Part shown: in pieces, positions 9,071-36,108 of the stretch
How positions within the stretch are numbered: the first letter of the stretch is position 1
Layout: each line of letters starts with the position of its first letter
From: Actinomycetota bacterium
GTDB taxonomy: Bacteria; Actinomycetota; UBA4738; HRBIN12
Length of the DNA: 64,000 nt
Assembly (NCBI GenBank): GCA_040881665.1
Contig: JBBECT010000004.1
Span: 117,782-181,781 of the forward strand
Reading direction: 5' to 3'
Position numbers and translations under genes: made by a program
The notes under the pieces: model-generated
What the model saw: the letters and a program-made list of their open reading frames with translations, nothing else
What the model was told of the DNA's origin: nothing
Database searches by the model: none

Positions 9071-9131
9071 CGGCACCGATGGTCGGCCCGCGTGGTTGCG
9101 CTGACAACCCACCGGTTGCGACCTCAGCAAC

Positions 9132-13878: not shown

Positions 13879-13881
13879 CCG

Positions 13882-14895: not shown

Positions 14896-15036
14896 CAGGT
14901 CGGCAGGGGGATCGGTCCGTTCGTTCCCGCTAGACACCCTGGTCGAAGATACTGGGAGCACCTCCTCCCGTGCGCAAGGCAGGGGTTGCGGTCATCGCAA
15001 CCATCCGCGCACTCGTCAACCGGACGCCGCGGCCAG

Positions 15037-16701
15037 TCACGAGGCCTGCTGATGCCGGTAGAACCCGACCTCCTCCGGGGGAAGGGGTGTGTTGCCGAGC
15101 AGCAGGTCGGCGGCCTTCTCCGCGACCATCATCACGGGGGCGTAGATGTTGCCGTTCGTGACGTAGGGCATCACCGAGGCGTCGACCACCGACAGACCCT
15201 CGGTGCCCCGAACCCGCATCGTCAGCGGATCGACGACGGCGAGCTCGTCGGTTCCCATCTTCGCCGTGCACGAAGGGTGCAACGCCGTCTCGCCCTCCCG
15301 CGCCACCCACTCGAGGATCTGCTCGTCGGTCTCGACCGCCGGCCCCGGCGACAGCTCGCCGCCGTCGAACGGAGCGAACGCCGGGCGGCCCAGGATGTCG
15401 CGCGCGACGTCGATCGCCTCGACCCACTCGCGGCGATCCTGGTCGGTCGACAGGTAGTTGAACCGGAGCGCCGGATGCGTCCACGGATCACGGCTGGTGA
15501 TCTTCACCGTCCCCCGCGCATCGGAGTACATCGGGCCGATGTGCACCTGGTAGCCGTGGTCCCCGGCGGGAGCCGACCCGTCGTAGCGAACCGCGACCGG
15601 GAGGAAGTGGAACATCAGGTTTGGGTAGGCCACCTCGTCGTTGCTCCGTACGAACCCTCCGGCCTCGAAGTGGTTCGTCGCGCCGAGACCCGAGCGGAAC
15701 ACGAGCCACTGGAACCCGATCCACGGGCGGTTGCGCCACTTCAGACCCGGTGCGACCGACACCGGCTGGGTACAGGCGTGCTGGATGTAGACCTCGAGGT
15801 GGTCCTGAAGGTTCTCCCCGACGCCCGGCAGGTCCGCGACCATGTCGACCCCGAGCGCGCCGAGCTCGTCCGCTGCGCCGATCCCCGACAACTGCAGCAG
15901 CTGTGGCGAGTTGATCGCCCCTCCGCACAGCACGACCTCCCCGGCGCGAACCCGCTTCGGCGAGGTCCCCAACCCGTGGACGTATTCGACGCCGACGGCA
16001 CGCGACCCCTCGAACAGGATCCGTGTGACGAACGCACGGGTGCTGACCTCGAGGTTGGGACGATGCCGGACCGGGTGGAGGTAGGCGCGTGCGGCCGAGA
16101 GACGACGGCCATGGTGCACGTTCCGGTCGAAGGGCGCGAACCCCTCCTGGCGGTAGCCGTTGACGTCCTCGGTCAGGGGATACCCCGCCTGCTGCACGGC
16201 CTCGAAGAACGCCCCGAACAGGGGGCTCGTCGCCGGACCGCGCTCGAGCGCGAGCGGGCCCGCGTGGCCGCGGAACGGATCCTCGAGCTCGGCCGCGAGG
16301 CAGGACTCCATCCGCTTGAAGTACGGCAGGCAGTGCGCGTAGTCCCATGTCTCCATCCCCGGATCCGCGGCCCACCGCTGATAGTCCAACGGGTTCCCGC
16401 GCTGGAAGATCATGCCGTTGATGCTGCTCGAGCCGCCGAGAACCTTCCCCCGCGCGTGGTAGATCCGGCGCCCGTTCATGCGTGGCTCGGGCTCGGACTC
16501 GTACTTCCAGTCGTAGAACCGGCTCCCGATCGGGAACGTGAGCGCCGCGGGCATATGGATGAAGACGTCCCAGAGATAGTCGGGCCGGCCCGCTTCGAGC
16601 ACCAACACCCGGTTCGAGGCGTCGGCGCTCAGTCGGTTCCCGAGCGCGCTCCCCGCCGAGCCGCCGCCCACGATCACGAAGTCGTACTGCGTCGCAGTCA
16701 C
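15037..16701 (-). CDS. betA: choline dehydrogenase (GMC oxidoreductase)
   Basis: FAD motif [18 protein letters not shown] and extensive collinear similarity to E. coli BetA along the whole length. GTG start at 16701 with a GGAAGGGG ribosome-binding site 5 nt upstream. Confidence 0.9.
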
Positions 16702-17804: not shown

Positions 17805-19907
17805 TCACTCGGGGGCGCGCGCCTCCGCGAGCGCGTCCACCGCCACGGCCCCACGCGCCCCCACCAGGAGCGGGTTCGCCTCGAGGGAGGTCAGCCGGCC
17901 GCGCAGATCGTGGGCGGCACGCGCGATCGCTTCTACGGCCTTCGCGACGGCCTTCAGATCGTGCTCCTCGGCGTCGAGCCCACACCGGGATGCTTGTTCG
18001 TCCACGTAGCGTTGCGCTTGCTTGGGCGAGAGCGGCGCCGGGACGAACACGGCCTCGCCCATCTCGGCCCGCCCCCCGCCGGGACGCATCGTGATGCACG
18101 CACCGAAACGCTCGTCGATCACCGCGCCGACCAGCACCTCGTGGCCACGCACCATCTGCTGCACGATCACCTTCGGAGCCTTGGCGCCCGCGCGTTCCGC
18201 CGCCGTGAGGACCTCCCCGGCCGCCTCCGCCACCTCGGTCGGATCCTTCAGCCCGAGCCGGACGCCACCGAGCTTCGCCTTGTGCGGGATCTCCGGCGCG
18301 AGCGCCTTCACGGCGACCTGGCCCCCGATCGCCCGCGCCGCCTTGGCTGCCTGCTCCGGGGTCGTGACGACGTGCTCCTTCGGCCGCTTCACCCCGTAGA
18401 GCTCGAGCAACGCCGCCCCCTGTTCCTCGTCGAGCGCGCCCTCGAGTCCACGCAGCAGCCGCATCGCCTTCGTCCGCGCCGGGTGCGCCTCGAGATCGGG
18501 CACACGACGCTCCTTCGCCGACTGCAGGTCGACGAGTGCCTTGATCGCACCGGCGGCGGCACGATGTCCCTGCAGGAACGGGATCTGCGCGTCGTCCACG
18601 AAGATCTTCGCGGCCTTCGGGTACGACAGCGGGCTCATCGCCACCGATGCGAACACGGTCTTCGTCTCCTTCTGCAGCTCGCGCACCCGTTGGAGCACCG
18701 GTTCGGCCCAGCTGTCCTCACCCTCGAGCCGGGGAGGGAACGCGTCGAACGCGACGAAGCCGACGTTCGGATCGTTGGCGAGCGCCTCGAGGGCGCCGAC
18801 GAACATGTGGGTCTCGACCGCGGCCTGTCCGGTCACGTCGAGCGGGTTGTTGAGGTTCGCGAACGACGGAAGGGTCGCGCGTAGCTTCTTCGCCGTCGCC
18901 TTCTCGAACTCCGGAAGGTCGAGCCCGGCCGCACCGGCCGCCTCCGCGTAGAGTGTGCAGGCCCCGCCGGACTGCAGCGCAGCCGAGACGCCGGTCGTCG
19001 TGAGCTTGCGGTGGTAGCTGAGCAACAGGGCGGCCTCGAACATCTCGACCGGGTCGGCGACCAGCGTCGCACCAAGCCCGCGGAGCCACGCGTCGCGCAG
19101 GTCCGTATCGCCGGCGAGGGCGCCCGTGTGTGCGACGATCGACCGCCGGGCGGCCTCGCTCTTGCCACCCGGAGCGCACACGAGGATCGGCTTCCTCGCG
19201 TCGGCGAGGGCGCGCAGGCCGCGCTCGATCCCCTCGACGTCGCGCATCGTCTCGATGTAGGTCGTGACAACGCTCGTGTGCGGATCGTCGGCGGCCCACT
19301 CGAACATGTCGCCGAGCCCGAGCACCGCCTCGTTCCCGACGCCGAGGATGATCCGTAGGCCGACCCCGCGGTCCGAGGCGATCTGGTTCATCGTCCACGC
19401 GACCGTTCCCGACTGGGAGAGCACACTGATCGAGCCCGGGATCGGATCGGGTGGCGGCGTCGTGCCGTACGCGGCAACGCGATCGACGTAGTTGATGAAC
19501 CCTTCGACGTTCGGCCCGAGGACCGGCATCTTGTGGTTCGCGGCCACCTCCTGGAGCTGGCGCTGGAGCTCGCGACCTTCGTCCCCCGCCTCGGCGAATC
19601 CAGACGACACCACCATCGCCGAGCGCACGCCTGCTGCACCCGCCTCGTCGACCGCGCGCACCGCGACCTTCGCGGGAACGACGCACACGAGCAGATCCAC
19701 GCCCTTCGGCAGGTCTCCGGCCGAGGCGTAGCAGCGCCGTCCCCACACCTGTTCGTATTTAGGGTTCACCGGGAGGATCTCCCCGGAGAACCCGACGTGC
19801 TGCAGGCTCCGGAAGATCTCCGGCGCCCACGAGTCCGGCGACTCCGAGGCACCGACGATCGCGATCGATCTCGGTGCGAGCAGCGGCTCGAGCTTCGACG
19901 GCTTCAC
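17805..19907 (-). CDS. acetate--CoA ligase (ADP-forming) / NDP-forming acyl-CoA synthetase, fused alpha-beta, 700 aa
   Basis: CoA-binding N-terminal domain, succinyl-CoA synthetase-like ligase domain and ATP-grasp C-terminal domain. The start overlaps the stop of the upstream enoyl-CoA hydratase. Confidence 0.85.
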   Translation of the reverse strand: MKPSKLEPLLAPRSIAIVGASESPDSWAPEIFRSLQHVGFSGEILPVNPKYEQVWGRRCYASAGDLPKGVDLLVCVVPAKVAVRAVDEAGAAGVRSAMVVSSGFAEAGDEGRELQRQLQEVAANHKMPVLGPNVEGFINYVDRVAAYGTTPPPDPIPGSISVLSQSGTVAWTMNQIASDRGVGLRIILGVGNEAVLGLGDMFEWAADDPHTSVVTTYIETMRDVEGIERGLRALADARKPILVCAPGGKSEAARRSIVAHTGALAGDTDLRDAWLRGLGATLVADPVEMFEAALLLSYHRKLTTTGVSAALQSGGACTLYAEAAGAAGLDLPEFEKATAKKLRATLPSFANLNNPLDVTGQAAVETHMFVGALEALANDPNVGFVAFDAFPPRLEGEDSWAEPVLQRVRELQKETKTVFASVAMSPLSYPKAAKIFVDDAQIPFLQGHRAAAGAIKALVDLQSAKERRVPDLEAHPARTKAMRLLRGLEGALDEEQGAALLELYGVKRPKEHVVTTPEQAAKAARAIGGQVAVKALAPEIPHKAKLGGVRLGLKDPTEVAEAAGEVLTAAERAGAKAPKVIVQQMVRGHEVLVGAVIDERFGACITMRPGGGRAEMGEAVFVPAPLSPKQAQRYVDEQASRCGLDAEEHDLKAVAKAVEAIARAAHDLRGRLTSLEANPLLVGARGAVAVDALAEARAPE

Positions 19908-20767
19908 GCGTCACCGCCGCCGTGCTGCTCGCGGAAGCGCGCGTCGCGCCAGGCGATCGCTTCCTTCAGTCCCTTCTCGAGCGTGATCGAGCGGAACTCC
20001 TCGCGCTCGGGGAGGTCCGCCGTCTCGATCAGGGTGTCGAGCGCGACGTTCGCATCGATCGCCTCGCGGAACCCCTGCACCTCCCACATCTTGTTGATCG
20101 CCTTCTTCTGGAGTGAGATCGCGAACGGATCGTTCTTCGCGATCTCGTTCGCGAGTTCGAGTGTCGCGTCGTCGAGGTTCTCGCGCGGCACCACGCGGTT
20201 CACGAGCCCGATCGCCTTCGCCTCCTCCGCCGAGATGCGGTCCTCGCCGGTGAACAGCAGCTCCTTCGACTTGCGGGAACCGATCACCCACGGCATCACC
20301 ATCGTGACGACGCCGGACCCGAACCGGATCTCCGGCTCGCCGAACCGCGCGTCATCCGACGCCACACACAGGTCGCACACCATCATCAGGTCGCAACCGC
20401 CTGCGAGGCAGTAGGAGTGCACCTGGGCGATCACCGGCTTGGGATGGTCGAAGAACGCGAGCATGTCGTCGGCCGAATGCTTCAACTCCTCGTACCAGCC
20501 GGCGGAGTCCTTCGTGCCGGCGTTCGCGTCCTCGTTGAGGTCGTAGCCGGAGCAGAACGCTCGGCCCTCCCCGCGAAGGACCAAGACGCGAACCGTGTCG
20601 TCGTCCGCCGCCGACGCGAGCGCCTGCTGCATCGCGCCGAGCAAGGTGCCATTGAGCGCATTCAACGCTTTCGGTCGGTTCATCGTCAGCCGGCGAACGG
20701 GACCGATGTTCTCGACGAGCAGGACGGGGCCGGTGTTCTCGGGGGTGCTGATGCTCTCACTCCTCAC
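19904..20767 (-). CDS. enoyl-CoA hydratase/isomerase (crotonase family)
   Basis: Crotonase fold; the region around LTMNRPKALNALN matches the family. Proposed GTG start at 20765-20767 has AGGTGGGGA 10 nt upstream. The track ORF extends further upstream, to 21271, but that part is Arg/Gly-rich. Confidence 0.75.
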   Translation of the reverse strand: MRSESISTPENTGPVLLVENIGPVRRLTMNRPKALNALNGTLLGAMQQALASAADDDTVRVLVLRGEGRAFCSGYDLNEDANAGTKDSAGWYEELKHSADDMLAFFDHPKPVIAQVHSYCLAGGCDLMMVCDLCVASDDARFGEPEIRFGSGVVTMVMPWVIGSRKSKELLFTGEDRISAEEAKAIGLVNRVVPRENLDDATLELANEIAKNDPFAISLQKKAINKMWEVQGFREAIDANVALDTLIETADLPEREEFRSITLEKGLKEAIAWRDARFREQHGGGDA

Positions 20768-20935: not shown

Positions 20936-22228
20936 ATGCCGCCCCGACACGACCGCGCGCGCACCCGCATCGACCGCCGGACGTTCCTGCACGCTTCGCT
21001 GGCGGCGACCGCCGGGATCGCGACAGCCGGTCTGGTCGCCGGCTGCCGCAAGACTGCCGCCTCCGGGCCCGCGGGTCCGACGACCGGCGTGCTGCTCGAT
21101 CCCGGAAGGCCGAGCGTGTGGCCGATCGACGAACGCGCGGCGCCGATCCCCGGCGGGCTCACCCCCGAGCGCGGCGCCACTCTGCGCGTGTACCAGTGGC
21201 GCGACTACCTCTACGACGATGTGCTCGAGTCGTTCGCCCGCCGCCACGCGCGCTACGGCGTCGACGTCCACGTGGAGAGCTTCACCACGATGGAGGAGGC
21301 GATCGCCCGGCTCCGCCGCCCGGGGGCGTCCTTCGACGTATTCTTCCCCACGATCGACGCGCTGCCCGACCTGGTCCTATCGGGGATGCTCCGGCCCCTC
21401 AACCACGCCTACCTGCCGAACGTGGCGAACCTGTGGCCCTGGTTCCGCGGGTCCTCGCGTCCCTTCTACGACGCCGGGCAGCGCTTCACCGTGCCATACA
21501 CGGTGTATTCGAGCGGGATCGCCTACAACCGCGACCTCGTCCGCGACGTCGACGCTCCTCCGACGGCCGGGTTCGACCTGTTGTGGAACGAGCGGTACGC
21601 CGGGGCGACGGCCTTCTACGACCAGTACCGCGAGGCGATCGCCCTGTCGCTGCTGCGCGACGGCCTCGACGATCCGATGCGCGCGAGCGACGTCGAGATC
21701 GAACGGGCAGCGTCCTCGCTCGTCGATGCGGTCGGAGGTCTGGACGCGCGTCTGGCAACCGACGCGGCCTACAGGGACGTTCCGGCGGGGCGCCTCGCCG
21801 CGGCGCAGGCGTGGTCGGGCGACGTGGTCTCGGCCGTTCGCCACGGCCGCGGCGGGCCGCGGGCCGCGGACCGTTTGGGCTACTGGTGGCCGATGACCGG
21901 AGGCGTCGTCGGCATCGATCTCACGGCCGTGCTCATCCAAGGCCGCAACCCCGTCCTCGCGCACGCGTTCCTCGATCACCTGCTCGACGAGCGCGTCGCG
22001 ATCGAGAATTACTCCTGGAACGGATACCAACCGCCCGTCGCCGCGCTCGACCGAGCATCGCTCTCGTCGCCCGGTTCGCCGTGGACCGGGATGCTGCCCG
22101 ATCACCTGCTGCATTGCGGCGTGCTGACCCAGCGCGAGTTGGAGCAGGGACGGTTCCTCGTGCGGCCGGCGCCCTCGGCCGACGGGACGTGGTTGCGAGC
22201 GTGGCAGCGCGTGGTCGCAGCGACCTGA
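20936..22228 (+). CDS. spermidine/putrescine-type ABC transporter substrate-binding protein (PotD/PotF family), TAT-signal lipoprotein
   Basis: RRTFLHASLAATAG TAT motif followed by a Cys lipobox and a PotD-like body. ATG verified at 20936. Confidence 0.75.
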   Translation: MPPRHDRARTRIDRRTFLHASLAATAGIATAGLVAGCRKTAASGPAGPTTGVLLDPGRPSVWPIDERAAPIPGGLTPERGATLRVYQWRDYLYDDVLESFARRHARYGVDVHVESFTTMEEAIARLRRPGASFDVFFPTIDALPDLVLSGMLRPLNHAYLPNVANLWPWFRGSSRPFYDAGQRFTVPYTVYSSGIAYNRDLVRDVDAPPTAGFDLLWNERYAGATAFYDQYREAIALSLLRDGLDDPMRASDVEIERAASSLVDAVGGLDARLATDAAYRDVPAGRLAAAQAWSGDVVSAVRHGRGGPRAADRLGYWWPMTGGVVGIDLTAVLIQGRNPVLAHAFLDHLLDERVAIENYSWNGYQPPVAALDRASLSSPGSPWTGMLPDHLLHCGVLTQRELEQGRFLVRPAPSADGTWLRAWQRVVAAT

Positions 22229-22238
22229 CCCGCCGCGG

Positions 22239-22742
22239 TCAGATCGTCGATCCGGCCCGGGCGAGCGCGAAGGTCACGTCCGGGTCGTAGCCGCGGGTGC
22301 GCAGCACGCTGTCGCCTGTCGTCGCGTCGATCATCTCGAACCACAGGTTCCGGTCGTCGCAGATGCCCTGGCGGTTCGGGTGGCGGCTCGCCTGAACCAG
22401 CTCGCCCTTGAAATCGGAGATACAGATCCCCCGGGTAAGGACCACCCACGCCGTGGCATCCGTCCCCTCGAACCGGTCGTGGACCGTGGCCAGCGACAGC
22501 ACCGCGGTGCGACGTGCGCGGTCGCCGTAGGTGCCCTGGGTCCGAGCGGCCTCGGGATCGATCGCAGGCACGAATCCGTCCGGCGGGGGGCGGAGCTCGA
22601 AGCCGAGGGACCCCGGCAGCTCCTGGACGCCCGTCTGTCGCAGGGTCGCGTAGGCGTCCGGTCCCCCACGGAACGCGAGGAGCGCGGCAACCGCCGCACC
22701 GACCGCCGCGAGGCCGGCCACTCCGATCATCCACTTGCGCAC
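22239..22742 (-). CDS. hypothetical exported/membrane-anchored protein, 167 aa
   Basis: N-terminal hydrophobic segment and ordinary composition; no recognisable domain. Confidence 0.4.
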   Translation of the reverse strand: MRKWMIGVAGLAAVGAAVAALLAFRGGPDAYATLRQTGVQELPGSLGFELRPPPDGFVPAIDPEAARTQGTYGDRARRTAVLSLATVHDRFEGTDATAWVVLTRGICISDFKGELVQASRHPNRQGICDDRNLWFEMIDATTGDSVLRTRGYDPDVTFALARAGSTI

Positions 22743-22808
22743 CGTTCGAGGACCTCCCTACCCGGAAGGTCCACGCTACCCGCGTGAACCAACGAACCGC
22801 CAGGCAGC

Positions 22809-24062
22809 TCAGACCAGCAGCTCGATGAGCAGCTGCGCGGCGTGACGACCGGAGCGCAGCGCCCCCTCCATCGTTCCCACATGATCTGGGTCGGCGACAT
22901 GCTCCCCGGCGAACGCGACCGATCCCCATCGCTCCTGCAGCAGGGGCAACCGATCCCGTCCCGGAGCGTCGAGGGCCGAGTACGCGCCGCGAGCGAAGGG
23001 CTCGTCGGCCCACACCTGCAGCCGCGCGCGGCCCTCGAGCGCAACGTCGGGAACCAGTTCGCGCAGGCGCTCGAGCCACACGGTCGGATCACCCCCCGCG
23101 ACCTTCAGGGCCCGCACCGCCGCGGGGGAGCCGCAGAACGAGGTCAGCGTCGGCCGGGTTCGGCCGTCGGCACCCGCGGCGATCCAGCACCACATCGGGA
23201 TCCGCGCGCTCTGGACGGACCGGGGACGCGCTCCCGGTTCGATCGCCACCGCGAGCTTGGCGGCGACCCCCATCGGACGCTCGCGCAGCGCCGCCGAGAC
23301 TCCGACGGGCAGGGGTGGTTCGAACGCGATCTCCGGGACGATCGTGACCGGCACCGCGATCACGGCCGCCGTCCCGGACACCGTCACCTCCCGGCCGTCG
23401 GCCCGCTCGGCGAACACCCGCACCGAGCCCTCCTCCTGCCGGACCCGCGTGACGCGGTGGCGCAGGCGCACATCGGCCAAGGAATCGGCGATCGCGACGG
23501 CGACGGACTGGTTGCCCTCCTCGCAGCGGAGGTACTCGGCACGATCGAGCGAGAGGTCGCCCGGTTCGAGGCTCGCGAGCGGGACCCGCGCCAGGTCCAC
23601 CGCGCAGGTTCCCTGCAGCCGCATGCGCAGCGTCGCGACCGCGCCGGGATCCGTATCGATCCCGTCGAGGAAGTCGGCGATCGAAGCCGCGTCCACCGTG
23701 CCCACATCCAGCGTCGCGAGACGGGTCGCGGCGGAGGCGACGGCGGACTCGAACGCCGCGAGGGACGGCGCCCCAGGCCCGGCGGGCGTCCGTCGCCGGT
23801 AGTCCGTTCGGGTGGGCGCCAAGGCGAGACCGAACCGATCGCACAGGGTCCGGATCTCGGCGTCGCCGGGCATGATCCACTCGCCCCCGAGCTCGATCAC
23901 CGACCCGTTCGGCAGGCGGGACGATCGAACCCTGCCCCCCGGCTCGAATCGCGCGTCCAGCACGGTCGTCGCGACTCCCCGGTCCTGCAGAGCACGCGCG
24001 GCCGAGAGCCCGGCGAAACCGGCCCCAACCACGACGACCCTCGGCGACGTATCTCTCAACAT
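22809..24062 (-). CDS. flavin-containing amine oxidase (polyamine/monoamine oxidase family)
   Basis: N-terminal VVVVGAGFAGLSAARAL dinucleotide-binding motif and an amine-oxidase-like body. Confidence 0.8.
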   Translation of the reverse strand: MLRDTSPRVVVVGAGFAGLSAARALQDRGVATTVLDARFEPGGRVRSSRLPNGSVIELGGEWIMPGDAEIRTLCDRFGLALAPTRTDYRRRTPAGPGAPSLAAFESAVASAATRLATLDVGTVDAASIADFLDGIDTDPGAVATLRMRLQGTCAVDLARVPLASLEPGDLSLDRAEYLRCEEGNQSVAVAIADSLADVRLRHRVTRVRQEEGSVRVFAERADGREVTVSGTAAVIAVPVTIVPEIAFEPPLPVGVSAALRERPMGVAAKLAVAIEPGARPRSVQSARIPMWCWIAAGADGRTRPTLTSFCGSPAAVRALKVAGGDPTVWLERLRELVPDVALEGRARLQVWADEPFARGAYSALDAPGRDRLPLLQERWGSVAFAGEHVADPDHVGTMEGALRSGRHAAQLLIELLV

Positions 24063-24097
24063 ACGGTCACGCCCGGTCGACGCGGTGGAAGGCTTGC

Positions 24098-24113
24098 GTA
24101 GTCCGGTCGGACT
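24098..24113. promoter_or_regulatory. 16-bp perfect palindrome TAGTCCGGTCGGACTA in the divergent amine oxidase / polyamine binding-protein intergenic region, candidate operator
   Basis: Seen in the sequence between the minus-strand amine oxidase start (24062) and the + strand binding-protein start (24195). Confidence 0.4.
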
Positions 24114-24194
24114 ATGGTACTCACCCGCCTGAACCGCGAGTCAGACCCCGGGGCGGTCCCGGAGGTGGCTCGCCTGGCATCGCAAGGAGGGCCG

Positions 24195-25481
24195 ATGCTG
24201 CGTCACCCACGAGACCGATCGAGCTCCATCAGCCGTCGCGAGTTCCTTCGGCGCGCCGCGGCTGCCGGCATCGCGCTCCCCAGTGCCGCGGCGATCCTCG
24301 CCGCCTGCCAGGGCGGCGACGACACCACGACCACCTCGGACACCGGCGTCGGCTTCAACCTCACGCCGTCACCGGACGACCCCGTCACGATGCCGATCTA
24401 CGACGACAACCCGGCGATCGCCTCGAACCTGGAGCCGGAGACCGACACGGTCTTCAAGGTCTTCAACTGGACCGACTACTACTGGAAGAAGAAGCTCGAG
24501 GAGTTCGGTGCGATGTACGACGTCGAGGTCGAGTACACGAACTTCTACAACATGGAGCAGGCCGTCGAGCGGCTGCGCACCGGTGACCTGGACGCCGATG
24601 TGTTCTTCCCGACGATCGATCAGCTCGGGCGTCTCGTGGCCGGCAAGCTGCTGCAGCCCATCAATCATGACTACGTCGGCACCTTCGACAACGTCTGGGC
24701 CGAACTCCAGAGCCCCTTCTACGACCAGGAATCGCGCTACTCGGTCCCGTACGTGATCTATACGACGGGGGTCGGGTTCCTGCGTACCGCGATCGACCCG
24801 GACGAGGTCTTCGCGATGGAGAACCCGTACGAGATCCTCTGGGACGAGAGGTTCGCCGGGAAGGTCGGTGTCTACGACGACTTCCGCGAGGCGATCGCGA
24901 TGTCGCTGCTGAAGAACGGCATCGCCGATGTCAACACGGAGGATCCCGCCGACATCGACGTGGCGAAGAATGATCTGATCGAGATGGTGAACACCGTCGA
25001 CGCGCGGTTCTCGATCAACGGCGCCTACGCGAAGCTGCCGCAGGGTGTGTTCGACGTCCACCAGGCGTGGTCGGGAGATATGATCGGTGCCCAGTACTAC
25101 ACGGGCAACGACGTCACCGCGGAAGACCTCGCCTTCTGGTTCCCGGAGGAAGGTGGCGGGGTGATCGGCAACGACCTCATGGCGATCCCCGCCACGGCGA
25201 ACAACCCGGTCCTCGCCCACCTGTTCCTCGATTTCAGCCTCGATGCGAAGCACGGGCTCGAGAACTTCAGCTGGGTCGGCTACCAGCCGCCGCTGAAGTC
25301 GATGGAGGCCGACACGCTGGTCGCCGATGGGTACGTGCACGAGAGCGTGGCCAATGCCGTGGTCGGGCAGGGACAGTTCAAGGACAACGTCCGATACCTG
25401 GCCCTCTCGGCCGAGGGCGAACAGCTCTGGCTCGAGGCATGGGAGGAGATCAGCTCGGGCGCCTCGCAGGGCGACAGTTGA
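24195..25481 (+). CDS. spermidine/putrescine-type ABC transporter substrate-binding protein (PotD/PotF family), TAT-signal lipoprotein
   Basis: RREFLRRAAAAGIALPSAAAILAAC TAT-lipobox signal. ATG verified at 24195 with an AAGGAGG ribosome-binding site. Paralogous to the binding protein at 20936-22228. Confidence 0.8.
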   Translation: MLRHPRDRSSSISRREFLRRAAAAGIALPSAAAILAACQGGDDTTTTSDTGVGFNLTPSPDDPVTMPIYDDNPAIASNLEPETDTVFKVFNWTDYYWKKKLEEFGAMYDVEVEYTNFYNMEQAVERLRTGDLDADVFFPTIDQLGRLVAGKLLQPINHDYVGTFDNVWAELQSPFYDQESRYSVPYVIYTTGVGFLRTAIDPDEVFAMENPYEILWDERFAGKVGVYDDFREAIAMSLLKNGIADVNTEDPADIDVAKNDLIEMVNTVDARFSINGAYAKLPQGVFDVHQAWSGDMIGAQYYTGNDVTAEDLAFWFPEEGGGVIGNDLMAIPATANNPVLAHLFLDFSLDAKHGLENFSWVGYQPPLKSMEADTLVADGYVHESVANAVVGQGQFKDNVRYLALSAEGEQLWLEAWEEISSGASQGDS

Positions 25482-25552
25482 TCGACCCGGCGCGGGCCAC
25501 CCCCTCCATCGGTACGATGCCGATGGAGGGGCACCGAGTGGGAGGCAGCTAG

Positions 25553-26581
25553 GTGGGTCGATCGACCACCGACACCGCACGCACCGCAACGGCGCTCGAC
25601 CGACTGCCCGGGGGCGGAGACGGCGCACCGGAGCCGGACGGGTCGAAGCGTCGGCGGAGGGGCCGGACGAGGGTCGTAGCACGAGGCGTCGGCCTGCCCA
25701 CCTGGTTCTGGAAGGCGTTCTCCGCTCCCGGTCTCCTCTGGCTGGTCGTCCTGTTCCTCGTACCCTTCTACACGGTGTTCGCCGTAGCGCTCGGGGGCCG
25801 GGATCCGATCTTCCTGAGCCCGGTCCCGGTCTACAACCCGATCGCGTGGAACCCGACCGAGTTCCAGAGCGTGGCGAGCCAGATCTTCGGCGGGGGTCCG
25901 CTCCAGGTCGTCCTGCTGCGTACCTTCGGGTATGTCGCGGTGGCCGCGGCGCTGTGTCTGATGATCGGCTACCCGGTCGCGTACTACATCTCGCGTCACG
26001 CGCGGAGAACCAAGGCTTTGCTGCTGGTCGCGCTGATCGCGCCCTTCTGGATCAGCTACCTGATGCGCATGCTGGCGTGGGTGAACCTGCTCGAAGAGAA
26101 CGGGATCGTGAACAGGTTCCTGCAACAGATGGGCCTGATCGGGCAGCCGATCAACTTTCTGAACGGGAGGCCGTCGACCGTCATCCTCGGGCTGGTGTAC
26201 GGCTACATCCCGTTCTTCATCCTGCCGCTGTACGCCTCGCTCGACCGGATCGGTCCGAGCATGCTCGAAGCGTCCCGTGACCTCGGCGCGAGTCCGCGGC
26301 GGACGTTCTTCCGGGTGACCTTGCCCCTGTCGCGACAGGGGATCCTCGCCGCGGGCGTGATCATCCTGCTCCCGATGTTCGGCGACTACTACACGAACAC
26401 CCTGCTGTCGGGGAACCCGAAGACGAACATGTTCGCGAACCTGATCGACCAGCAGCTGCACTCACGCACAGGACACGCCCGCGGAGCGTCGATGGTGATC
26501 ATCCTGTCGGCGCTGCTCCTCGTGTTCATGGGCTACTACCTCTGGAGCACCACCCGCGCGGCGAAGGAATACGAAGCATGA
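25553..26581 (+). CDS. polyamine ABC transporter permease (PotB/PotH-like)
   Basis: Six-helix ABC permease with an EAA loop. GTG verified at 25553 with a GGGAGG ribosome-binding site 7 nt upstream and an in-frame TAG just before it. Confidence 0.85.
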   Translation: MGRSTTDTARTATALDRLPGGGDGAPEPDGSKRRRRGRTRVVARGVGLPTWFWKAFSAPGLLWLVVLFLVPFYTVFAVALGGRDPIFLSPVPVYNPIAWNPTEFQSVASQIFGGGPLQVVLLRTFGYVAVAAALCLMIGYPVAYYISRHARRTKALLLVALIAPFWISYLMRMLAWVNLLEENGIVNRFLQQMGLIGQPINFLNGRPSTVILGLVYGYIPFFILPLYASLDRIGPSMLEASRDLGASPRRTFFRVTLPLSRQGILAAGVIILLPMFGDYYTNTLLSGNPKTNMFANLIDQQLHSRTGHARGASMVIILSALLLVFMGYYLWSTTRAAKEYEA

Positions 26582-27516
26582 GCGCGGCCGCACCCCCCCT
26601 CGACCAGCACGGACGGATCCGGACCTGGTTCGCGAACCCGTGGGGCAAACCGCGGTTCTTGGCCGTCCTGACCTGGGGATTCGTGCTCTGGTCGATCGTG
26701 CCGGTCGTCATCGCGGTGCTGATCTCGTTCAACTCGAACCGCTCGACATCCACGTTCACGGGACCGTCGTTGTTGTGGTGGACCGGCGGCGAGCTCGGCA
26801 CCACCGGTGAGGAGGTCCTCGGTGTCTTCACGGACCCCGACCTGCGCGGCGCCGTGGCACAGACCCTGAAGCTCGCGTTCGCCGACATGCTGATCGCGAC
26901 ACCGATCGGCGTCGCGTTGGCGCTCGGTCTGGCGCGTTGGCGCGGGCGCGGATCGGGGAGTGCGAACTTCCTGATGCTGTTCCCGCTCGTGACGCCGGAA
27001 CTGGTCATGGGAACCGCGCTGTTCCTGGTCTTCATCAACCTGTACGACTTCGTGAGCATGGGAACGCCCGCCCAGATCCTCGGACACGTGACGTTCTCCA
27101 TCTCCTACGTCGTGATCGTGGTGCGCGGGCGGCTGTTCACGATCGGTCGGGAGCAAGAGGAAGCCGCGATGGACCTCGGCGCCTCGCCCTTCGGCGCCCT
27201 GCGCCGCGTTCTGCTCCCGCTGCTGGCGCCCGCGATCTTCGCTTCGGCCATGATCGTGTTCGCGATCTCGATCGACGACTTCGTGATCACGAGCTACCTG
27301 CTCGGCGGACAAGACTCGACGACCGTGCCGGTGTTGATTTATCAAACGGCCCGAGCCGGCCCTACGCCGGCCTTGAACGGCGTCGCAACGCTGATGCTCG
27401 TGGGTTCTCTGGTCGCGATCACCTTGGGCGTGCTCGTCCAGCGTCGCGTGAACAGGCGGCGCGAGGGCGATCGGCGTGGGTCGGCGGTCGAGGATTTCGC
27501 GCGCTTCGAGCTGTAG
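26578..27516 (+). CDS. polyamine ABC transporter permease (PotC/PotI-like)
   Basis: ABC permease. ATG at 26578 overlaps the PotB stop (ATGA). Confidence 0.85.
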   Translation: MSAAAPPLDQHGRIRTWFANPWGKPRFLAVLTWGFVLWSIVPVVIAVLISFNSNRSTSTFTGPSLLWWTGGELGTTGEEVLGVFTDPDLRGAVAQTLKLAFADMLIATPIGVALALGLARWRGRGSGSANFLMLFPLVTPELVMGTALFLVFINLYDFVSMGTPAQILGHVTFSISYVVIVVRGRLFTIGREQEEAAMDLGASPFGALRRVLLPLLAPAIFASAMIVFAISIDDFVITSYLLGGQDSTTVPVLIYQTARAGPTPALNGVATLMLVGSLVAITLGVLVQRRVNRRREGDRRGSAVEDFARFEL

Positions 27517-27568
27517 CGATCCCGAGAAGTCGCAAGGGGGGCCTCCCCCAGGAGATGCGGCGGTCGGG

Positions 27569-28693
27569 TCAGGCGGTGCGCGCTTGCAGATCCGCTTGCA
27601 GCTCGGACTCCGGAGTGGCGTCCTGCAGCACGCGGAGCGCTTCGGGCGGGAAGTGCACCGACACGGGAGTCCCCGCCTCGTACGGGAAGGCCTCCGAGCC
27701 GTCGTTGGTGACCCATGCCTGCAGCTTCTGCCCGTCGGCGAGCGTCACGAGCCCGTGGATCACCGAACCGACGTAGACCTTGCGCTCGACCAGACCCGGC
27801 AGGCGGTTCTCACCGGCCGCCCCCTGAGGTTCGACGTCGACCCGCTCGGGACGGATGCACAGCTTGACCGCCCCGGTCGCGTCGATGTCGCCCTGGCCCG
27901 CCTCGACGGTGACGTCCCCGAGCTTGACGCGGCAGCGCTGACCCGTGGTGCCCTCGGCGGAGCCGTCCATCAGGTTCGAAACGCCGAGGAAGTCTGCGAC
28001 GTAGGCGGTCGCCGGCTGCTCGTAGATCTCCGCCGGGGGGCCGATCTGCTCGACCCGGCCGTTCGACATGACCGCGATGCGGTCCGACATCGTCAGTGCC
28101 TCTTCCTGGTCGTGGGTCACGTAGATGAACGTGATCCCGACCTCTTCCTGGAGGGCCTTCAGCTCGACCTGCAAGGCCTTGCGCAGCTTGGCGTCGAGCG
28201 CCCCGAGCGGCTCGTCGAGCAACAGGACCGACGGGTTGAGGATCAACGCGCGAGCGAGCGCGACGCGCTGCTGCTGGCCGCCCGAGAGCTGCGTCGGCCG
28301 GCGCTCGCCGAAACCGGCGAGCTGCACGAGCTCGAGAGCCTCCCCGACCCGCCGGTTGGTCTCCTCCTTCGAGGCGTCCTGGTACTTCAACCCGAACGCC
28401 ACGTTCTGCTCGACCGTGAGGTGGGGGAACAGCGCGTAGTTCTGGAAGACCGTGTTCACGTTCCGCTTGTGCGGTGGGATCTGCCCCACGTCCACGCCGT
28501 CGAGCAGGATCTGCCCCTCGGTCGGTCGCTCGAAGCCCGCGATCATCCGGAGCGTCGTGGTCTTGCCGCATCCGGAGGGGCCGAGCATCGAGAAGAACTC
28601 CCCGGTCGGCATCCGAAGGTTGACGCCGTCGACGGCGACGACGTCGCCGAAGCGCTTCACCAGGTCGACGAGTTGGACCTCTCCCCCAGCCAT
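27569..28693 (-). CDS. polyamine ABC transporter ATP-binding protein (PotA/PotG-like) with a C-terminal TOBE domain
   Basis: Walker [19 protein letters not shown] signature and Walker B LLLDEP. It is convergent with the permease genes. Confidence 0.85.
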
Positions 28694-28763
28694 GACTGGC
28701 GGAGTCTATACCATTCCCTTCGGCGGTCGGTACCCCCGACCGGCATGGCATGCTGTCGCGTCC

Positions 28764-29987
28764 ATGGACGAGTTGGGACCCCAACACAGCCCCGGCGGAT
28801 CGGTCACCCCGAGCTCGCTGGCGAACCGTCGTGGTCCCTCGGGCGTGCTCGTGCTGCTGGCGGGTTACGCAGCGTTCGGGATGTACTGGGGCGTCTGGGT
28901 GGTCATCCAGCTCGATTTCCTCCGCGAGAACCACATGAGCGAGGGCGCCCTCGGGTTGCTGTTCTCGGGATTGTCCGTCGTCTCGATCGCGACGATGACG
29001 CTGCTGACCCCTCGGATCCAGCAGCGACCGCTCGCGATGACCATCGCGATCGGACTCATAACGATGGCAGGGGGTGGCGCCCTGATCGCGATCGGCGCGG
29101 GTCCGATCCTCCTGGCCGGCTTCGTGGTCCTCGGCGTGGGCAACGGTCTGATCGACGTGTTCTCGAACATCGCCGCCCAGGGGGTCGAGGCCCGCGAGCG
29201 CCGGCCGGTCCTCCAATGGTTGCACGCCTCGTACAGCGTGGGCGGCATCGTGGGGGCGATCGGAGCCGGAGCGGCGATCGAAGCAGGCGTGTCGTTCACG
29301 ACGGTCATGCTCGTGGAGATGCTGGCACTCGTCGCGGCGGCGACGTGGACGATCACCTCACCGCGGCTCCGCCGGCTCCCGCGCCCGGCCGCGGCGCAGA
29401 GCGGGTTCTCGCTCGGCGTCCTGCGCCGCGCTCCGAGGTTGCTGCTCCCCGCCCTCGTGATCATGTTCGCCTTCTTCGTCGAAGGCTCGATGGACGTGTG
29501 GTCGGGCACCTACGTGCGCAAGACCCTGGGATCGACGGCGTTCGTCGCCGGGGCCGCCTTCGCCGCCTTCAGCCTCGCGATCGCCGTGGGCAGGCTCACC
29601 GCGGGCAAGCTGCTCTTCGGACTCGGCTACGACCGCACGATCCTCGTGTCCGGCGCCGGCGCCTTCGTCGGAGGCGTGATCGCGACCCTCACCTCGAGCC
29701 CGCTCGTGGCGGCGATCGGGTTCCTGATCCTCGGGTTCTTCATCTCCGCCGCGGCGCCGGCCGCGTTCGGACTCGCGGACCGGACCGACCAGGATCCGGC
29801 GAGCGCCGTGGCTGGCATGAGCACCGTCGGCTACACGGGGTTCGTGATCGGACCGCCGATCATGGGCCTGCTCGCCGAGAGCAGCGGTCTGCGCCTGACG
29901 ATGGGCGTGATCGCGATGAGCACGCTCGGGGTCGCCGCCTGCGGCATCCTGGATCGCCTCCGTCACGGCGCCTCGGTCCGCACGTGA
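28764..29987 (+). CDS. MFS transporter, 407 aa
   Basis: Twelve-helix hydrophobic profile. The in-frame ATG at 28764 lies after the convergent ATPase start region; the track ORF begins earlier, at 28452, but that stretch overlaps the ATPase. Confidence 0.7.
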   Translation: MDELGPQHSPGGSVTPSSLANRRGPSGVLVLLAGYAAFGMYWGVWVVIQLDFLRENHMSEGALGLLFSGLSVVSIATMTLLTPRIQQRPLAMTIAIGLITMAGGGALIAIGAGPILLAGFVVLGVGNGLIDVFSNIAAQGVEARERRPVLQWLHASYSVGGIVGAIGAGAAIEAGVSFTTVMLVEMLALVAAATWTITSPRLRRLPRPAAAQSGFSLGVLRRAPRLLLPALVIMFAFFVEGSMDVWSGTYVRKTLGSTAFVAGAAFAAFSLAIAVGRLTAGKLLFGLGYDRTILVSGAGAFVGGVIATLTSSPLVAAIGFLILGFFISAAAPAAFGLADRTDQDPASAVAGMSTVGYTGFVIGPPIMGLLAESSGLRLTMGVIAMSTLGVAACGILDRLRHGASVRT

Positions 29988-30158: not shown

Positions 30159-31307
30159 ATGTTGGACCAGCATGACGACCGGATCCGCTACGACGAGGAC
30201 GACTGGACCCCCCGTCCCACGCTCGGCGCCGAGGACTACCGGAGCGAGGACATCTGGCAGGCCGAGCGCGAGAAGATCTGGTGGGGTGACTGGGTCTGCT
30301 TCGGCCGCAGCGAGGAGGTCGCCAACCCCGGCGACTACCTCGTCCGCGACCTCGCCGGCGAGTCGATCTTTATCGCCCGCAACCGCGAGGGAGTCCTGCA
30401 CGGCTTCTACAACGTGTGCAGCCACCGAGGGACGAAGTTCCTCGACGAGGGGTGCGGCGCGGTCAAGAAGGCCTTCAAGTGCCCCTACCACGCGTGGACC
30501 TACGATCTCGACGGGAACCTGATCGGCACGCCGAACGTGCAGGAGGACGAATCCTTCGACCGGTCGCGCTACCCGCTGCACGGCTTCGCGGTCGAGGAGT
30601 ACGCGGGGTTCCTGTGGGTCAGCCTCGCGGAGCAGCCGCGCCCGCTGATGGACGCGCTCACCCACGGCGCCGAATCGATCACCGCGTTCGAGCGCTTCAA
30701 GATGGAGGAGTTGCGGATCGGCGCGCGGATCGTTTACGAGGTCGCAGCGAACTGGAAGATCGTCGTCGAGAACTACAACGAGTGCCTCCACTGTCCCACC
30801 GTTCACCCCGAGCTCGTGCAGGTGGTTCCCCTGTTCCGCTTCGGCGAAGTGTGGGATGGCGAGACCCGCGACGATGGCAACTGGATGATGGAGGGCGCGA
30901 CCAGCTTCACCGCGACGGGCGAGAGCGCGTTGCCCAAGCTGCCGGACCTGCTCGAGGACGACTACAAGATGTACTACGGCTCCTACGAGTTCCCGAACCT
31001 GATGCTGAACCTGCACCCGGACTGCGTGATGTACTACATCGGCTATCCGACCGGACCCAACCACACGACGGTCGTGTCCGAGTTCCTGTTCCGCCCCGAG
31101 ACGATCGCCGACCCGAACTTCACGCCCGAGCCGGTCGTCGAGTTCTGGGACCTGATCTCCAAGCAGGACTGGGGCATCGTCGAGCGCGCACAGACCGGCG
31201 TCGGTTCGCGGGCGTTCAAGCAGGGCGTCTACCCGCGCCAGGACCGCTTCCTCTACAACTTCAACGAGGAGTGGCGCCAGGTGATGGGCCGGCAGCTCGG
31301 CGGCTAG
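30159..31307 (+). CDS. Rieske [2Fe-2S] non-heme iron oxygenase alpha subunit (GbcA/Stc2/CntA-like quaternary-amine demethylase/oxygenase family)
   Basis: Rieske motif CSHRGTKF...CPYHAW and a mononuclear-iron catalytic domain. GAGGAGG ribosome-binding site 8 nt upstream of ATG 30159. Confidence 0.85.
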   Translation: MLDQHDDRIRYDEDDWTPRPTLGAEDYRSEDIWQAEREKIWWGDWVCFGRSEEVANPGDYLVRDLAGESIFIARNREGVLHGFYNVCSHRGTKFLDEGCGAVKKAFKCPYHAWTYDLDGNLIGTPNVQEDESFDRSRYPLHGFAVEEYAGFLWVSLAEQPRPLMDALTHGAESITAFERFKMEELRIGARIVYEVAANWKIVVENYNECLHCPTVHPELVQVVPLFRFGEVWDGETRDDGNWMMEGATSFTATGESALPKLPDLLEDDYKMYYGSYEFPNLMLNLHPDCVMYYIGYPTGPNHTTVVSEFLFRPETIADPNFTPEPVVEFWDLISKQDWGIVERAQTGVGSRAFKQGVYPRQDRFLYNFNEEWRQVMGRQLGG

Positions 31308-34376: not shown

Positions 34377-34652
34377 GTGCTCCTGTTCATCGTCGTGCTG
34401 TTGCTGCTCGCCGCGATCTTCGGCGTGCTCGGAACCGTCCTCAAGGTCGCCTTCGTGCTGGTCCTGGGCGCGGTCCTCGCCGTCGCCACGATCGCGCTGC
34501 TGGGCTACTACTGGTTCCGCTACCGGCTCCGCGAGTATCAGCGCCGGACGCAGCAGGTGGGCCCGGGGGGAAATCCTCACGTGCCGCCGGTCACGCCCTC
34601 GAGCACGATCGACGTGGGTGAGCCGGTCCGCGACGAGCTCACGGACGACTGA
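34377..34652 (+). CDS. small hydrophobic membrane protein, 91 aa
   Basis: GTG at 34377 with a GGTAGGA ribosome-binding site 7 nt upstream. Two predicted transmembrane helices then a polar tail. Its 3' end overlaps the convergent oxidoreductase stop by 14 nt. Confidence 0.45.
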   Translation: MLLFIVVLLLLAAIFGVLGTVLKVAFVLVLGAVLAVATIALLGYYWFRYRLREYQRRTQQVGPGGNPHVPPVTPSSTIDVGEPVRDELTDD

Positions 34653-36108
34653 CCCGATCCCGCCCGCGTCGCCGCCGGGCGATCAGGGCCTCGCGGTAGG
34701 CCAGCGGTGCAACCTGGAGCGCCCGGGCGACCGGCCCGCGCCCCCGCCCGCGCTCGTCCGCCCGATCGCCGGACTCCATCCCCCAGACGGCCAGCCGGAC
34801 GAGCGGCCAACGCAGTGGTTCGGGCGGTGCCGTCCCGATCGGCGCACCGACGACGGGCATCGTCGACCACCGGTCCTGCGAACCGAGGACGAGCGAGGCG
34901 AGGATCCGCCCGCCGAGCTTGGTCTGGGCGAGCCCGTGACCGGAGAACCCGAGCCCCGCGTGCACGTTGCCGGATGCGCGCGTATGGAAGAACGGAACGA
35001 ACGTGGGCGTCATGTCGATCGGTCCACCCCACGCGTGCGTGCAGCGAACGCCCTCCAACTGCGGGAACAACCACACGAGACCCCGTGCCGCCTGCTGGGC
35101 GACGCGACGATCGTGGGTCGCCCGGCGGCCGATCGAACCGCCCCACACGACCCCCGTGGATCCGCCACCGATCGCGAGCCGTCCATCGTCGGTCCGCCGC
35201 AGGTAGTAGAGGAGATCCCGGCCGTCGGCGAGACCCGTCCAGCTGGTCCAGCCCAGGTCGTCCCGGATCCGATCGGGGATCGGTTCGGTGACGACCATGT
35301 AGTCGGCGATGTTGCCGAACGCGGTCCGATACCCGGGCCAGGCAGCCGCCCAGGCTCCGATCGTCAGCACGACGTGATCGGCACGCACCGCTCCGCGCTC
35401 GGCGCGAACGATCGTCGGCGTGCCCTCCTCGAGCGAGATCGCGCGCGTTCCCTCGAAGATCGCGACGCCACGCTCGAGCAGCACACGACGGAGTCCGCGC
35501 GCGAGCCGTGCCGGCTGGCAGATCGCATTCGCGGGAGTGAACGTCGCGCTCGTGATCCTCGGGGAATCGGCGATCGCTCGCGCCTGCGGGAGGGTCAGAG
35601 GCCGGATCGCGTCCGGCCGGCCGTTGCGAACGGCGAACGCGGCCGGACCCTGGTCCGGGTCGCCCTCCTGCCACGAGCCGGTGCGGACGGCCATGACGCC
35701 CTCCGCGTGGAACCACGCATCGATCCCGTGCCGGTCGAGCCATCTCCCGACCTCGTCCACCTCTTCCGCGAGCGCCGTCGCGTACCGCCTGCCCTCCTCC
35801 AGCCCGAACAGGCCGCACAGTTCCGGGAACTCATGCCATGACGAGGAGAAGAACCCCCCGTTGCGTCCGCTGGCTCCCCCACCGCAGATGTCCTGCTCGA
35901 GCAGAACGATACGCAGCCCGGGCTCCCGCTCGGTCAGCTCGTAGGCCGCCCACATGCCGGCGAAACCACCGCCGAGGACACAGACGTCCGCGCCGATCCG
36001 CCTCTCGAGGGGGGGACACGGCGCACCACGATCGGCGGCGAGCGCCTCCTCGAGCCAGAAGCTGCGCCGATCCCCGGGGGGCGGCGCCTCGATCCAAGAG
36101 GTCGTCAT
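34639..36108 (-). CDS. FAD-dependent oxidoreductase (DAO family; gamma-glutamylputrescine oxidase/PuuB-like)
   Basis: VCVLGGGFAGMWAAYEL dinucleotide motif. ATG verified at 36106-36108. Confidence 0.75.
   Translation of the reverse strand: MTTSWIEAPPPGDRRSFWLEEALAADRGAPCPPLERRIGADVCVLGGGFAGMWAAYELTEREPGLRIVLLEQDICGGGASGRNGGFFSSSWHEFPELCGLFGLEEGRRYATALAEEVDEVGRWLDRHGIDAWFHAEGVMAVRTGSWQEGDPDQGPAAFAVRNGRPDAIRPLTLPQARAIADSPRITSATFTPANAICQPARLARGLRRVLLERGVAIFEGTRAISLEEGTPTIVRAERGAVRADHVVLTIGAWAAAWPGYRTAFGNIADYMVVTEPIPDRIRDDLGWTSWTGLADGRDLLYYLRRTDDGRLAIGGGSTGVVWGGSIGRRATHDRRVAQQAARGLVWLFPQLEGVRCTHAWGGPIDMTPTFVPFFHTRASGNVHAGLGFSGHGLAQTKLGGRILASLVLGSQDRWSTMPVVGAPIGTAPPEPLRWPLVRLAVWGMESGDRADERGRGRGPVARALQVAPLAYREALIARRRRGRDRVSRP

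Follow-up and report, generated by a model that had tools for sequence, protein, structure and literature searches.

A 64-kb stretch of DNA from an Actinomycetota bacterium (64,000 nucleotides of contig JBBECT010000004.1, assembly GCA_040881665.1; this whole stretch is called the window, and its own positions are used below) contains an island of genes around an ATP-binding cassette (ABC) importer resembling the polyamine transporter PotABCD. Besides two permeases and an ATPase, the island holds two PotD-like substrate-binding proteins (SBP1 and SBP2), a flavin amine oxidase and several enzymes of carbon metabolism, and a third PotD-like protein (SBP3) is encoded farther along the window (Table 1). 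The G+C content of the window is about 70% and raw lists of open reading frames (ORFs) are full of artefacts. A codon-position frame plot of the third-position G+C (GC3) separates the true frames and matches the depositors' gene calls, which were compared on contig JBBDTR010000005.1 of assembly GCA_040904315.1 (the same DNA). The identities and coordinates in Table 1 are backed alike by this plot, by Pfam/NCBIfam scans and by those calls.

A tblastn search of the whole window with the cluster proteins gives exactly three PotD-like binding proteins, one PotB, one PotC and one PotA-like ATPase. A first-pass annotation, made from the letters of this DNA, had named the last of these as the only ATPase; this is correct for the PotA-like type, but a second ABC ATPase is present at 13882-14961 (minus strand), which is part of an OpuA-type betaine transporter and shows 43% identity over the nucleotide-binding domain. 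An Rfam scan of the 64-kb window found no riboswitch or other RNA family, and scans of the window for sigma-70 promoters and intrinsic terminators found nothing beyond the level of shuffled sequences.

Related loci were collected by a pattern scan with one genome per species, which yielded 353, and the best 80 of them (cited below by L numbers) were mapped with the window proteins by tblastn. These best 80 of the 353 loci are almost all from Actinomycetota (Gaiellaceae, Thermoleophilia, Nocardioides, Rubrobacter, Streptosporangiaceae), and the relatives of SBP2 number more than 1,200, nearly all of them again in Actinomycetota. Synteny counts refer to the 67 loci with a resolved PotB-PotC pair; in these the ATPase was searched for within 3 kb and was taken as cognate at an identity of at least 55%.

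Table 1. Genes of the amine-uptake island and associated genes in the window
Gene product	Position	Strand	Remarks
ADP-forming acyl-CoA synthetase (ACS)	17805-19907	-	700 amino acids
Enoyl-CoA hydratase (ECH, crotonase)	19904-20767	-	with ACS, conserved partner upstream of and divergent from the SBP gene in relatives
SBP1, PotD-like Tat lipoprotein, 'Arg-type' clade	20936-22228	+	Pfam SBP_bac_8
Small membrane-anchored extracytoplasmic protein, predicted PepSY-like fold	22239-22742	-	167 amino acids
FAD amine oxidase, cytoplasmic	22809-24062	-	Pfam Amino_oxidase 7e-43; 407-417 amino acids depending on start; depositors' start 24032
SBP2, core-linked PotD-like Tat lipoprotein	24195-25481	+	Pfam, NCBIfam, PDB sequence search
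PotB/PotH-like permease	25553-26581	+	BPD_transp_1
PotC/PotI-like permease	26578-27516	+	4-bp overlap with PotB; Pfam, NCBIfam
PotA-like ATPase	27569-28693	-	ABC_tran and TOBE_2; convergent with permeases, divergent from MFS gene
Major facilitator superfamily (MFS) transporter	28764-29987	+	often conserved beside the ATPase in relatives
Rieske oxygenase, quaternary-amine CntA/GbcA group	30159-31307	+	CntA 6y8j best PDB match
SBP3, orphan PotD-like Tat lipoprotein, different lineage	61083-62315	-	

A transporter core with a reversed ATPase gene

The island resembles the PotD-PotABC and PotFGHI systems of Escherichia coli in possessing a cluster-D type binder, two permeases and an ATPase with a C-terminal TOBE-type regulatory domain, and PotABC/PotFGHI are the best or only relatives of its components among solved structures and NCBIfam models. 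The ATPase reaches 381.4 bits with the potA subfamily model TIGR01187 (cut-off 355.6) and carries TOBE_2 at its C-terminus. The best NCBIfam models of the two permeases are PotH/PotB (165/160 bits) and PotC/PotI (137/126 bits), respectively, and none of the cut-offs of 326-489 bits is reached. The PotB-like permease begins with a very Arg-rich cytoplasmic extension of about 60 residues (containing GSKRRRRGRTRVVARG; encoded at 25553-25730), which is absent from E. coli PotB.

The PotB-PotC pair and the single PotA-like ATPase convergent with it on the opposite strand, both reported in the first-pass annotation, are borne out by the Pfam/NCBIfam scans and by tblastn. The split of the core was regarded there as special to this island, which is not the case: the cognate ATPase gene lies downstream within 3 kb on the opposite strand in 52 of the 67 loci, and adjacent and co-directional in none of them (0/67). 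In four loci (L066, L068, L072 and L073) it is found upstream of the SBP gene on the other strand and divergent from it, and in some related loci PotC is separated from the reversed ATPase by another gene. That the ATPase is transcribed separately is a conserved trait of the subfamily, and presumably an ancient one. It sets the island apart from E. coli, where the ATPase gene heads the potABCD operon. The intervening gene of L088 (12379-13473 in that locus) encodes a 364-residue protein without a Pfam match; L088 also has two acyl-CoA dehydrogenases, an aminotransferase and a longer (553-residue) amine oxidase, that is, a different catabolic complement with the same transporter.

Both binding proteins of the island had been described as preceding the permeases. 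This is true of SBP2, whose gene directly precedes the two translationally coupled permease genes, but SBP1 is a lone plus-strand gene convergent with the small ORF behind it. The oxidase and the small protein do lie between the two binding proteins as noted before, with the correction that both are on the minus strand.

Several short inverted repeats are located between these genes. A perfect 12-bp stem-loop without a T-tract (25501-25531, plus strand) stands between the stop codon of SBP2 and the start of PotB, and may adjust the expression of the SBP relative to the permeases. Of the 35 related loci that have such a spacer, 13 carry a stem of 7 bp or more, compared with about 4% of control segments; the hairpin was nevertheless rejected as a conserved feature, being enriched but not universal, with little or no spacer in about half of the loci. 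The convergent PotC and PotA genes end 52 bp apart, and a short GC hairpin in this gap (GGGGG-loop-CCCCC, 27536-27549), also without a T-tract, is a predicted terminator and may end both convergent transcripts. The divergent promoter region between the oxidase and SBP2 contains a perfect 7-2-7 palindrome, TAGTCCGGTCGGACTA (24099-24114), which occurs as a single copy in the window and is a candidate repressor operator, possibly of a nearby TetR regulator. The idea of a shared operator joining the scattered genes was discarded, since this palindrome does not recur in the window and its near-matches are no more numerous than in shuffled sequences.

The binding proteins and their ligand pocket

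The three binding proteins were compared with all PDB sequences and with the NCBIfam equivalogs, whose cut-offs are 582 bits for PotD and 636 bits for PotF. In the PDB all three match only polyamine binders of the PotD/PotF/SpuD/SpuE type (E 1e-20 to 1e-28), the next matches being maltose binders at E >1e-4, and in NCBIfam they match PotD, PotF and, weakly, YdcS, with no other models. The PotD/PotF scores are 51/61 bits for SBP1, 90/56 for SBP2 and 97/65 for SBP3. As a difference from the E. coli systems, the island proteins thus stay below the equivalog cut-offs of the PotD, PotF, PotB and PotC models, 5-10 fold in the case of the binding proteins. Judged by these scores, the SBPs are distant members of the PotD/PotF superfamily and not orthologues of PotD or PotF. 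Binders of iron(III), thiamine or 2-aminoethylphosphonate (2-AEP) are absent from the PDB and NCBIfam matches of the three proteins; such an identity was rejected because the matches are solely of the PotD/PotF type, which also settles in favour of the first-pass annotation the iron(III) and thiamine families that it had itself raised as the alternative.

Over their full length SBP1 and SBP2 share 36% identity, and they have unusual N- and C-terminal extensions in common, while SBP3 is only 26% identical to SBP2 and represents a separate lineage. Compared with E. coli PotD, the island SBPs are extended by 40-60 residues at the N-terminus and are also extended at the C-terminus. The twin-arginine (Tat) signals and lipoboxes that had been noticed before were found in all three: a [S/D]RRxFL motif at residues 13-19 (DRRTFL in SBP1, SRREFL in SBP2 and SBP3) is followed by a hydrophobic stretch and by a lipobox Cys at residue 37-38 (VAGC in SBP1, LAAC in SBP2 and SBP3), and the Arg pair, the Phe and the lipobox Cys are invariant in a 15-sequence alignment of the family. 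All three agree with the Tat-lipoprotein signal consensus, and export by this route is predicted; E. coli PotD, in contrast, is a Sec-exported periplasmic protein. The lipoprotein signal of the window's OpuAC binder is of the ordinary Sec type. That some lipoproteins depend on Tat is established for Streptomyces, according to a passage of PMC6833217 that cites Thompson et al. 2010, and Tat-lipoprotein SBPs are to be expected in an actinobacterium and are not remarkable.

In E. coli PotD, spermidine is contacted by the acidic residues E36, D168, E171 and D257 and by the aromatic residues W34, Y37, W229 and W255, with W255 named as critical to the affinity for spermidine (PMC11414716). The pocket positions were mapped in 88 subfamily members and in SBP3, and the mapping agrees with HMMER alignments to PDB sequences. 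At PotD positions 34/35/36/37, 83/85, 168/171 and 229/255/257/293, PotD reads WTEY-SY-DE-WWDY, SBP2 WTDY-TD-DE-WGDY, SBP1 WRDY-TD-QE-WGDY and SBP3 WPLY-SW-ED-WWTY. By these alignments of about 25% identity, the acidic positions 36/168/171/257 are occupied by D, D, E and D in SBP2 (4/4), by D, Q, E and D in SBP1 (3/4) and by L, E, D and T in SBP3 (2/4). All four aromatic residues (W34, Y37, W229 and W255) are retained in SBP3 and three of the four in the SBP1/SBP2 subfamily. The missing one is W255, which is Gly in both SBP1 and SBP2, mostly Gly and otherwise Asn, Asp, Ala or Phe in the subfamily, and Trp in none of the 88 members. In addition, the Tyr85 position of the SBP1/SBP2 subfamily is almost always Asp and Ser83 is replaced by Thr. 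SBP2 therefore resembles PotD in the equivalents of W34, Y37, D168, E171, W229, D257 and Y293 and in an acidic residue at position 36, and departs from it, together with its subfamily, in the changes from Trp255 to Gly, Tyr85 to Asp and Ser83 to Thr.

Since the acidic set and three of the aromatics are kept while Trp255 is absent and Asp stands at position 85, the pocket points to a protonated amine and not to canonical spermidine binding. Members of the SBP1/SBP2 subfamily are probably cationic-amine binders, and probably not canonical spermidine/putrescine binders. SBP1, with Arg in place of Thr35 and Gln in place of Asp168, may bind a ligand that is less cationic and possibly carboxylate-bearing. 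The polyamine-type substrates of the first-pass annotation are not secured: the equivalog scores are below cut-off and Trp255 is missing from SBP1 and SBP2.

SBP1 with its PepSY-like neighbour, and the orphan SBP3

A second SBP of the SBP1/SBP2 subfamily is found in only 5 of the 67 loci. The SBP1-type copies (those of the window, L008, L022, L062 and L075) form an exclusive monophyletic clade in a neighbour-joining tree, and all have Arg at the Thr35 position. In all five a homologue of the small ORF runs convergently towards the SBP1-type gene, stop to stop, the two stop codons being 10 bp apart in the window, and this small ORF occurs nowhere else in the 80 loci. SBP1-type genes never have a permease of their own, and all were found no farther than about 6 kb from an SBP2-PotB-PotC core (5/5 loci). 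Convergence with an SBP gene is seen again in a distant member of the small family that was obtained by an independent retrieval. In locus L089 the neighbourhood is the same except that SBP1 and the small ORF are absent, in the order OpuA-ABC/GMC/EamA/ACS/ECH/amine oxidase, then SBP2-PotB-PotC, PotA on the minus strand, MFS and an aldehyde dehydrogenase gene (Aldh). This order is seen as the ancestral one, and SBP1 and the small ORF therefore look inserted between hydratase and oxidase in the window.

An AlphaFold2 model of the small protein made from six sequences was unusable (pLDDT 54), and became usable once the hits of a profile search were added. The model suggests a PepSY-like fold for this membrane-anchored protein, which differs from PepSY-domain proteins (the C-terminal domain of YpeB, YpmB, and M4/M36 protease propeptides) by an extra helix and by two invariant Cys residues. 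The small protein has no Pfam PepSY match, and a Foldseek search of the model against the PDB gave no significant match. To our knowledge, a PepSY-like protein associated with an ABC binding protein has no earlier description, and a literature search found no paper on this SBP subfamily or on an SBP-PepSY-like pairing.

SBP3 has no permease or ATPase gene within 10 kb on either side, so the earlier description of it as a third, orphan binding protein holds. Its orthologues (63-72% identity) are likewise orphans in three other genomes, in a conserved setting of a TetR gene, a CN-hydrolase and a convergent protein of about 470 residues. In the window the last of these (59655-61070, plus strand, 471 residues) has no precomputed Pfam match and scores 185 and 164 bits with the KamA-family radical-SAM aminomutase models TIGR03820 and TIGR00238, both below cut-off. 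The pairing of SBP3 with this KamA-like protein is kept in L091 and L092, and a link of SBP3 to beta-amino acids or beta-lysine is conceivable. SBP3 may use the island core, another core or none, and family resemblance is all that ties it to the island core.

On the divergent side of SBP3 (62440-63944 and on to about 72315) are the CN-hydrolase, which is weakly formamidase/aliphatic-amidase-like, and the TetR gene, followed by two sulfatases and two PF04185 phosphoesterases of the phospholipase C/acid phosphatase type. The sulfatases and phosphoesterases might release choline or amines from esters, and the arrangement is conserved in L006, L091 and L092. Two PAS-GGDEF-EAL proteins and a GAF-HisKA_3 histidine kinase are encoded at 43492-47139 and about 56366-58830; one GGDEF/EAL gene lies about 2 kb from SBP3, and this is conserved in L006, L007 and L091.

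A single core used by several binding proteins had also been proposed in the first-pass annotation. For SBP1 and SBP2 such sharing is plausible, because SBP1-type genes lack a permease and occur only near the SBP2-PotB-PotC core, but SBP3, as a separate orphan lineage, is not supported as a third client. That one core can serve several binders is an already established principle, as with HisJ and ArgT, which use the single core HisQMP, and with Cbc. The Cbc system (CbcXWV) of Pseudomonas, for choline, betaine and carnitine, resembles the island in its single core, its extra paralogous SBP genes without permease and its amine/betaine catabolic context, and it recruits several binding proteins according to the title of a paper cited in PMC10030565. 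It differs in that its binders are of the OpuAC/ProX type and those of the island of the PotD type, that sharing was shown there by experiment and is predicted here, and that the extra binder of the island comes with a dedicated PepSY-like membrane protein.

Proposed amine degradation and the possible substrate

The amine oxidase begins with an FAD-binding GxGxxG motif (VVVVGAGFAG, from residue 9) and has no Sec or Tat signal. Its best PDB match is 7rt0, a methylamine-forming 4-methylaminobutanoate oxidase (E 4e-40, residues 8-413 against 3-404), which ranks ahead of nicotine-pathway amine oxidases, putrescine oxidase and monoamine oxidases. The two enzymes share the flavin amine oxidase fold and are homologous over their full length, but their identity is moderate and the nicotine-pathway context is lacking here. 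Orthologues are found at the same position in L022, L034, L040, L051, L052, L064, L065 and L089, and in relatives the oxidase is the first gene of a minus-strand operon with the crotonase, the ADP-forming ACS and an EamA exporter. ACS and crotonase are tightly conserved beside the transporter (68-74% identity in many loci). Over its whole length the ACS matches NF045493, a model of archaeal 4-hydroxybutyrate-CoA ligase, at 277 bits, far below the cut-off of that model. The Rieske oxygenase matches the carnitine monooxygenase CntA (6y8j) with E 2e-51 and the GbcA model with 184 bits, which is below cut-off.

A complete-looking choline/glycine-betaine demethylation island occupies 160-16700 on the minus strand. 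It comprises an MTHFR-like protein, a non-Pyl MttB-family methyltransferase, a RACo corrinoid activator, a pterin-binding methyltransferase, a B12-binding corrinoid protein, a dimethylglycine (DMG)-dehydrogenase-like DAO+GCV_T protein, an aldehyde dehydrogenase resembling betaine aldehyde dehydrogenase (BADH), the OpuAC binder, a fused OpuAB permease, its ATPase and a GMC oxidoreductase. L040, L052, L064 and L089 likewise have this island in association with the PotD-like cluster. Farther along, at 34639-36108 (minus strand), a DAO-family flavoprotein with orthologues of 61% identity conserved in L012 and L064 has as its best NCBIfam model TIGR03329, 'putative aminophosphonate oxidoreductase' (315 bits, cut-off 633), a family that as a rule adjoins PotD-like 2-AEP transporters.

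We consider it probable, though well short of certain, that the island combines an ABC importer of the PotABCD class, from an uncharacterised and mainly actinobacterial subfamily, with cytoplasmic enzymes that degrade the imported amine. SBP2 would catch a cationic amine outside the membrane and deliver it to PotB/PotC, and with Gly255 and Asp85 it is unlikely that this ligand is spermidine or putrescine as understood for E. coli. SBP1 would most likely dock on the same core and add a second ligand, which may be less cationic or bear a carboxylate, with its PepSY-like neighbour probably acting together with it outside the cell. In the cytoplasm the flavin amine oxidase would turn the amine into an aldehyde, whose carbon skeleton would then be processed by the nearby aldehyde dehydrogenase, ADP-forming ACS and ECH. 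SBP3 would be a separately evolving orphan binder.

Several points weigh against this picture. The catabolic route from the oxidase to the aldehyde dehydrogenase, ACS and ECH is drawn from the conserved neighbourhood alone, and only some of the related loci have the oxidase. The pocket mapping rests on alignments about 25% identical to E. coli PotD, and ligand specificity, SBP docking and co-expression are all predictions from sequence. SBP1 is transcribed alone, so its co-regulation with the core is hypothetical. Given the second SBP in just 5 of the 67 loci, use of multiple SBPs is a minority variant. Finally, about 72 kb of the 163-kb contig were examined, and a PotBC-type core elsewhere in the genome could partner SBP1 or SBP3.

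It is also conceivable, although rather unlikely in our opinion, that the importer carries a quaternary ammonium or N-methylated compound (for instance carnitine, gamma-butyrobetaine, a choline derivative or 4-methylaminobutanoate) and feeds the betaine/choline demethylation island. The conserved neighbours (OpuA-type ABC, GMC, MttB/corrinoid/RACo, DMG-dehydrogenase-like and BADH-like proteins) are in keeping with such a substrate, and so is the Rieske oxygenase of the CntA/GbcA group that often adjoins the cluster in relatives. The closest solved relative of the oxidase frees methylamine from 4-methylaminobutanoate, the subfamily is devoid of the Trp255 that is critical for spermidine, and ADP-forming ACS and ECH (with acyl-CoA dehydrogenases in L088) fit a CoA-dependent route of the betaine type. 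However, the fully acidic set of SBP2, with Asp85 as a fifth acidic residue, is typical of binders of protonated primary or secondary amines and not of the aromatic cage for quaternary ammonium groups; the window already has a dedicated OpuAC-type betaine binder and transporter; and a literature search found no link of PotD/PotF binders to carnitine, CntA or methylaminobutyrate oxidase.

The place assigned to SBP1 may be questioned as well. SBP1 with its PepSY-like partner, and likewise SBP3, could instead have a sensory or regulatory role outside the cytoplasm, or could serve a transporter encoded elsewhere, an explanation that we hold to be unlikely. SBP1 is, after all, a lone gene convergent with the small ORF, and SBP3 is an orphan with its own neighbourhood in four genomes, where two of the three relatives, like the window, encode a GGDEF/EAL protein no more than about 2 kb away; the confinement of the survey to part of the contig leaves room for another client relationship. 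Against a sensory role of SBP1, its genes keep to within a few kb of the SBP2-PotBC-PotA core in 5/5 cases, its terminal extensions and most of its pocket and hinge residues are common to SBP2, and no gene for a histidine kinase, chemoreceptor or sigma/anti-sigma factor adjoins it. That the oxidase works on the outer face of the membrane beside the binding proteins, the periplasm-facing amine oxidation of the first-pass annotation, was rejected as highly improbable in this monoderm-type actinobacterium with its lipoprotein SBPs: its sole support is a position between two exported binders and next to a small exported protein, but the enzyme has no Sec or Tat signal and its FAD motif starts at residue 9, it is a full-length homologue of the soluble flavoenzyme 7rt0, and in relatives without SBP1 and the small ORF it comes first in the cytoplasmic ECH/ACS operon.

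The cluster is real, coherent and largely ordinary: Tat lipoproteins are normal for actinobacteria, a reversed ATPase is normal for the subfamily, and shared cores are known. New here are a redefined ligand pocket, an ATPase transcribed separately as a conserved trait, and the SBP1-PepSY-like module, whose functions are predicted. A bolder proposal, which we regard as quite doubtful, is that the SBP1-type binder and its PepSY-like protein form an undescribed two-gene plug-in accessory module that is set beside an existing ABC core and extends or gates its substrate range, the PepSY-like protein tethering, chaperoning or regulating SBP1 at the permease, and that the whole subfamily, with Gly255/Asp85 and an ATPase that is always separately transcribed, imports a class of amine not assigned to any PotD-like system.

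The conserved, separately transcribed ATPase and the pairing of an SBP with a PepSY-like protein are small architectural novelties that are testable. Automatic annotation labels these proteins 'spermidine/putrescine' transporters in hundreds of actinobacterial genomes from soil and freshwater. To judge from the differences in the pocket and from the conserved catabolic neighbours (the methylaminobutanoate-oxidase-like flavoenzyme, the ADP-forming ACS, the crotonase and CntA-type Rieske oxygenases, all within a choline/betaine island), this label is probably imprecise, and what is really imported may be a different amine or nitrogen-rich osmolyte that matters for the turnover of carbon and nitrogen.

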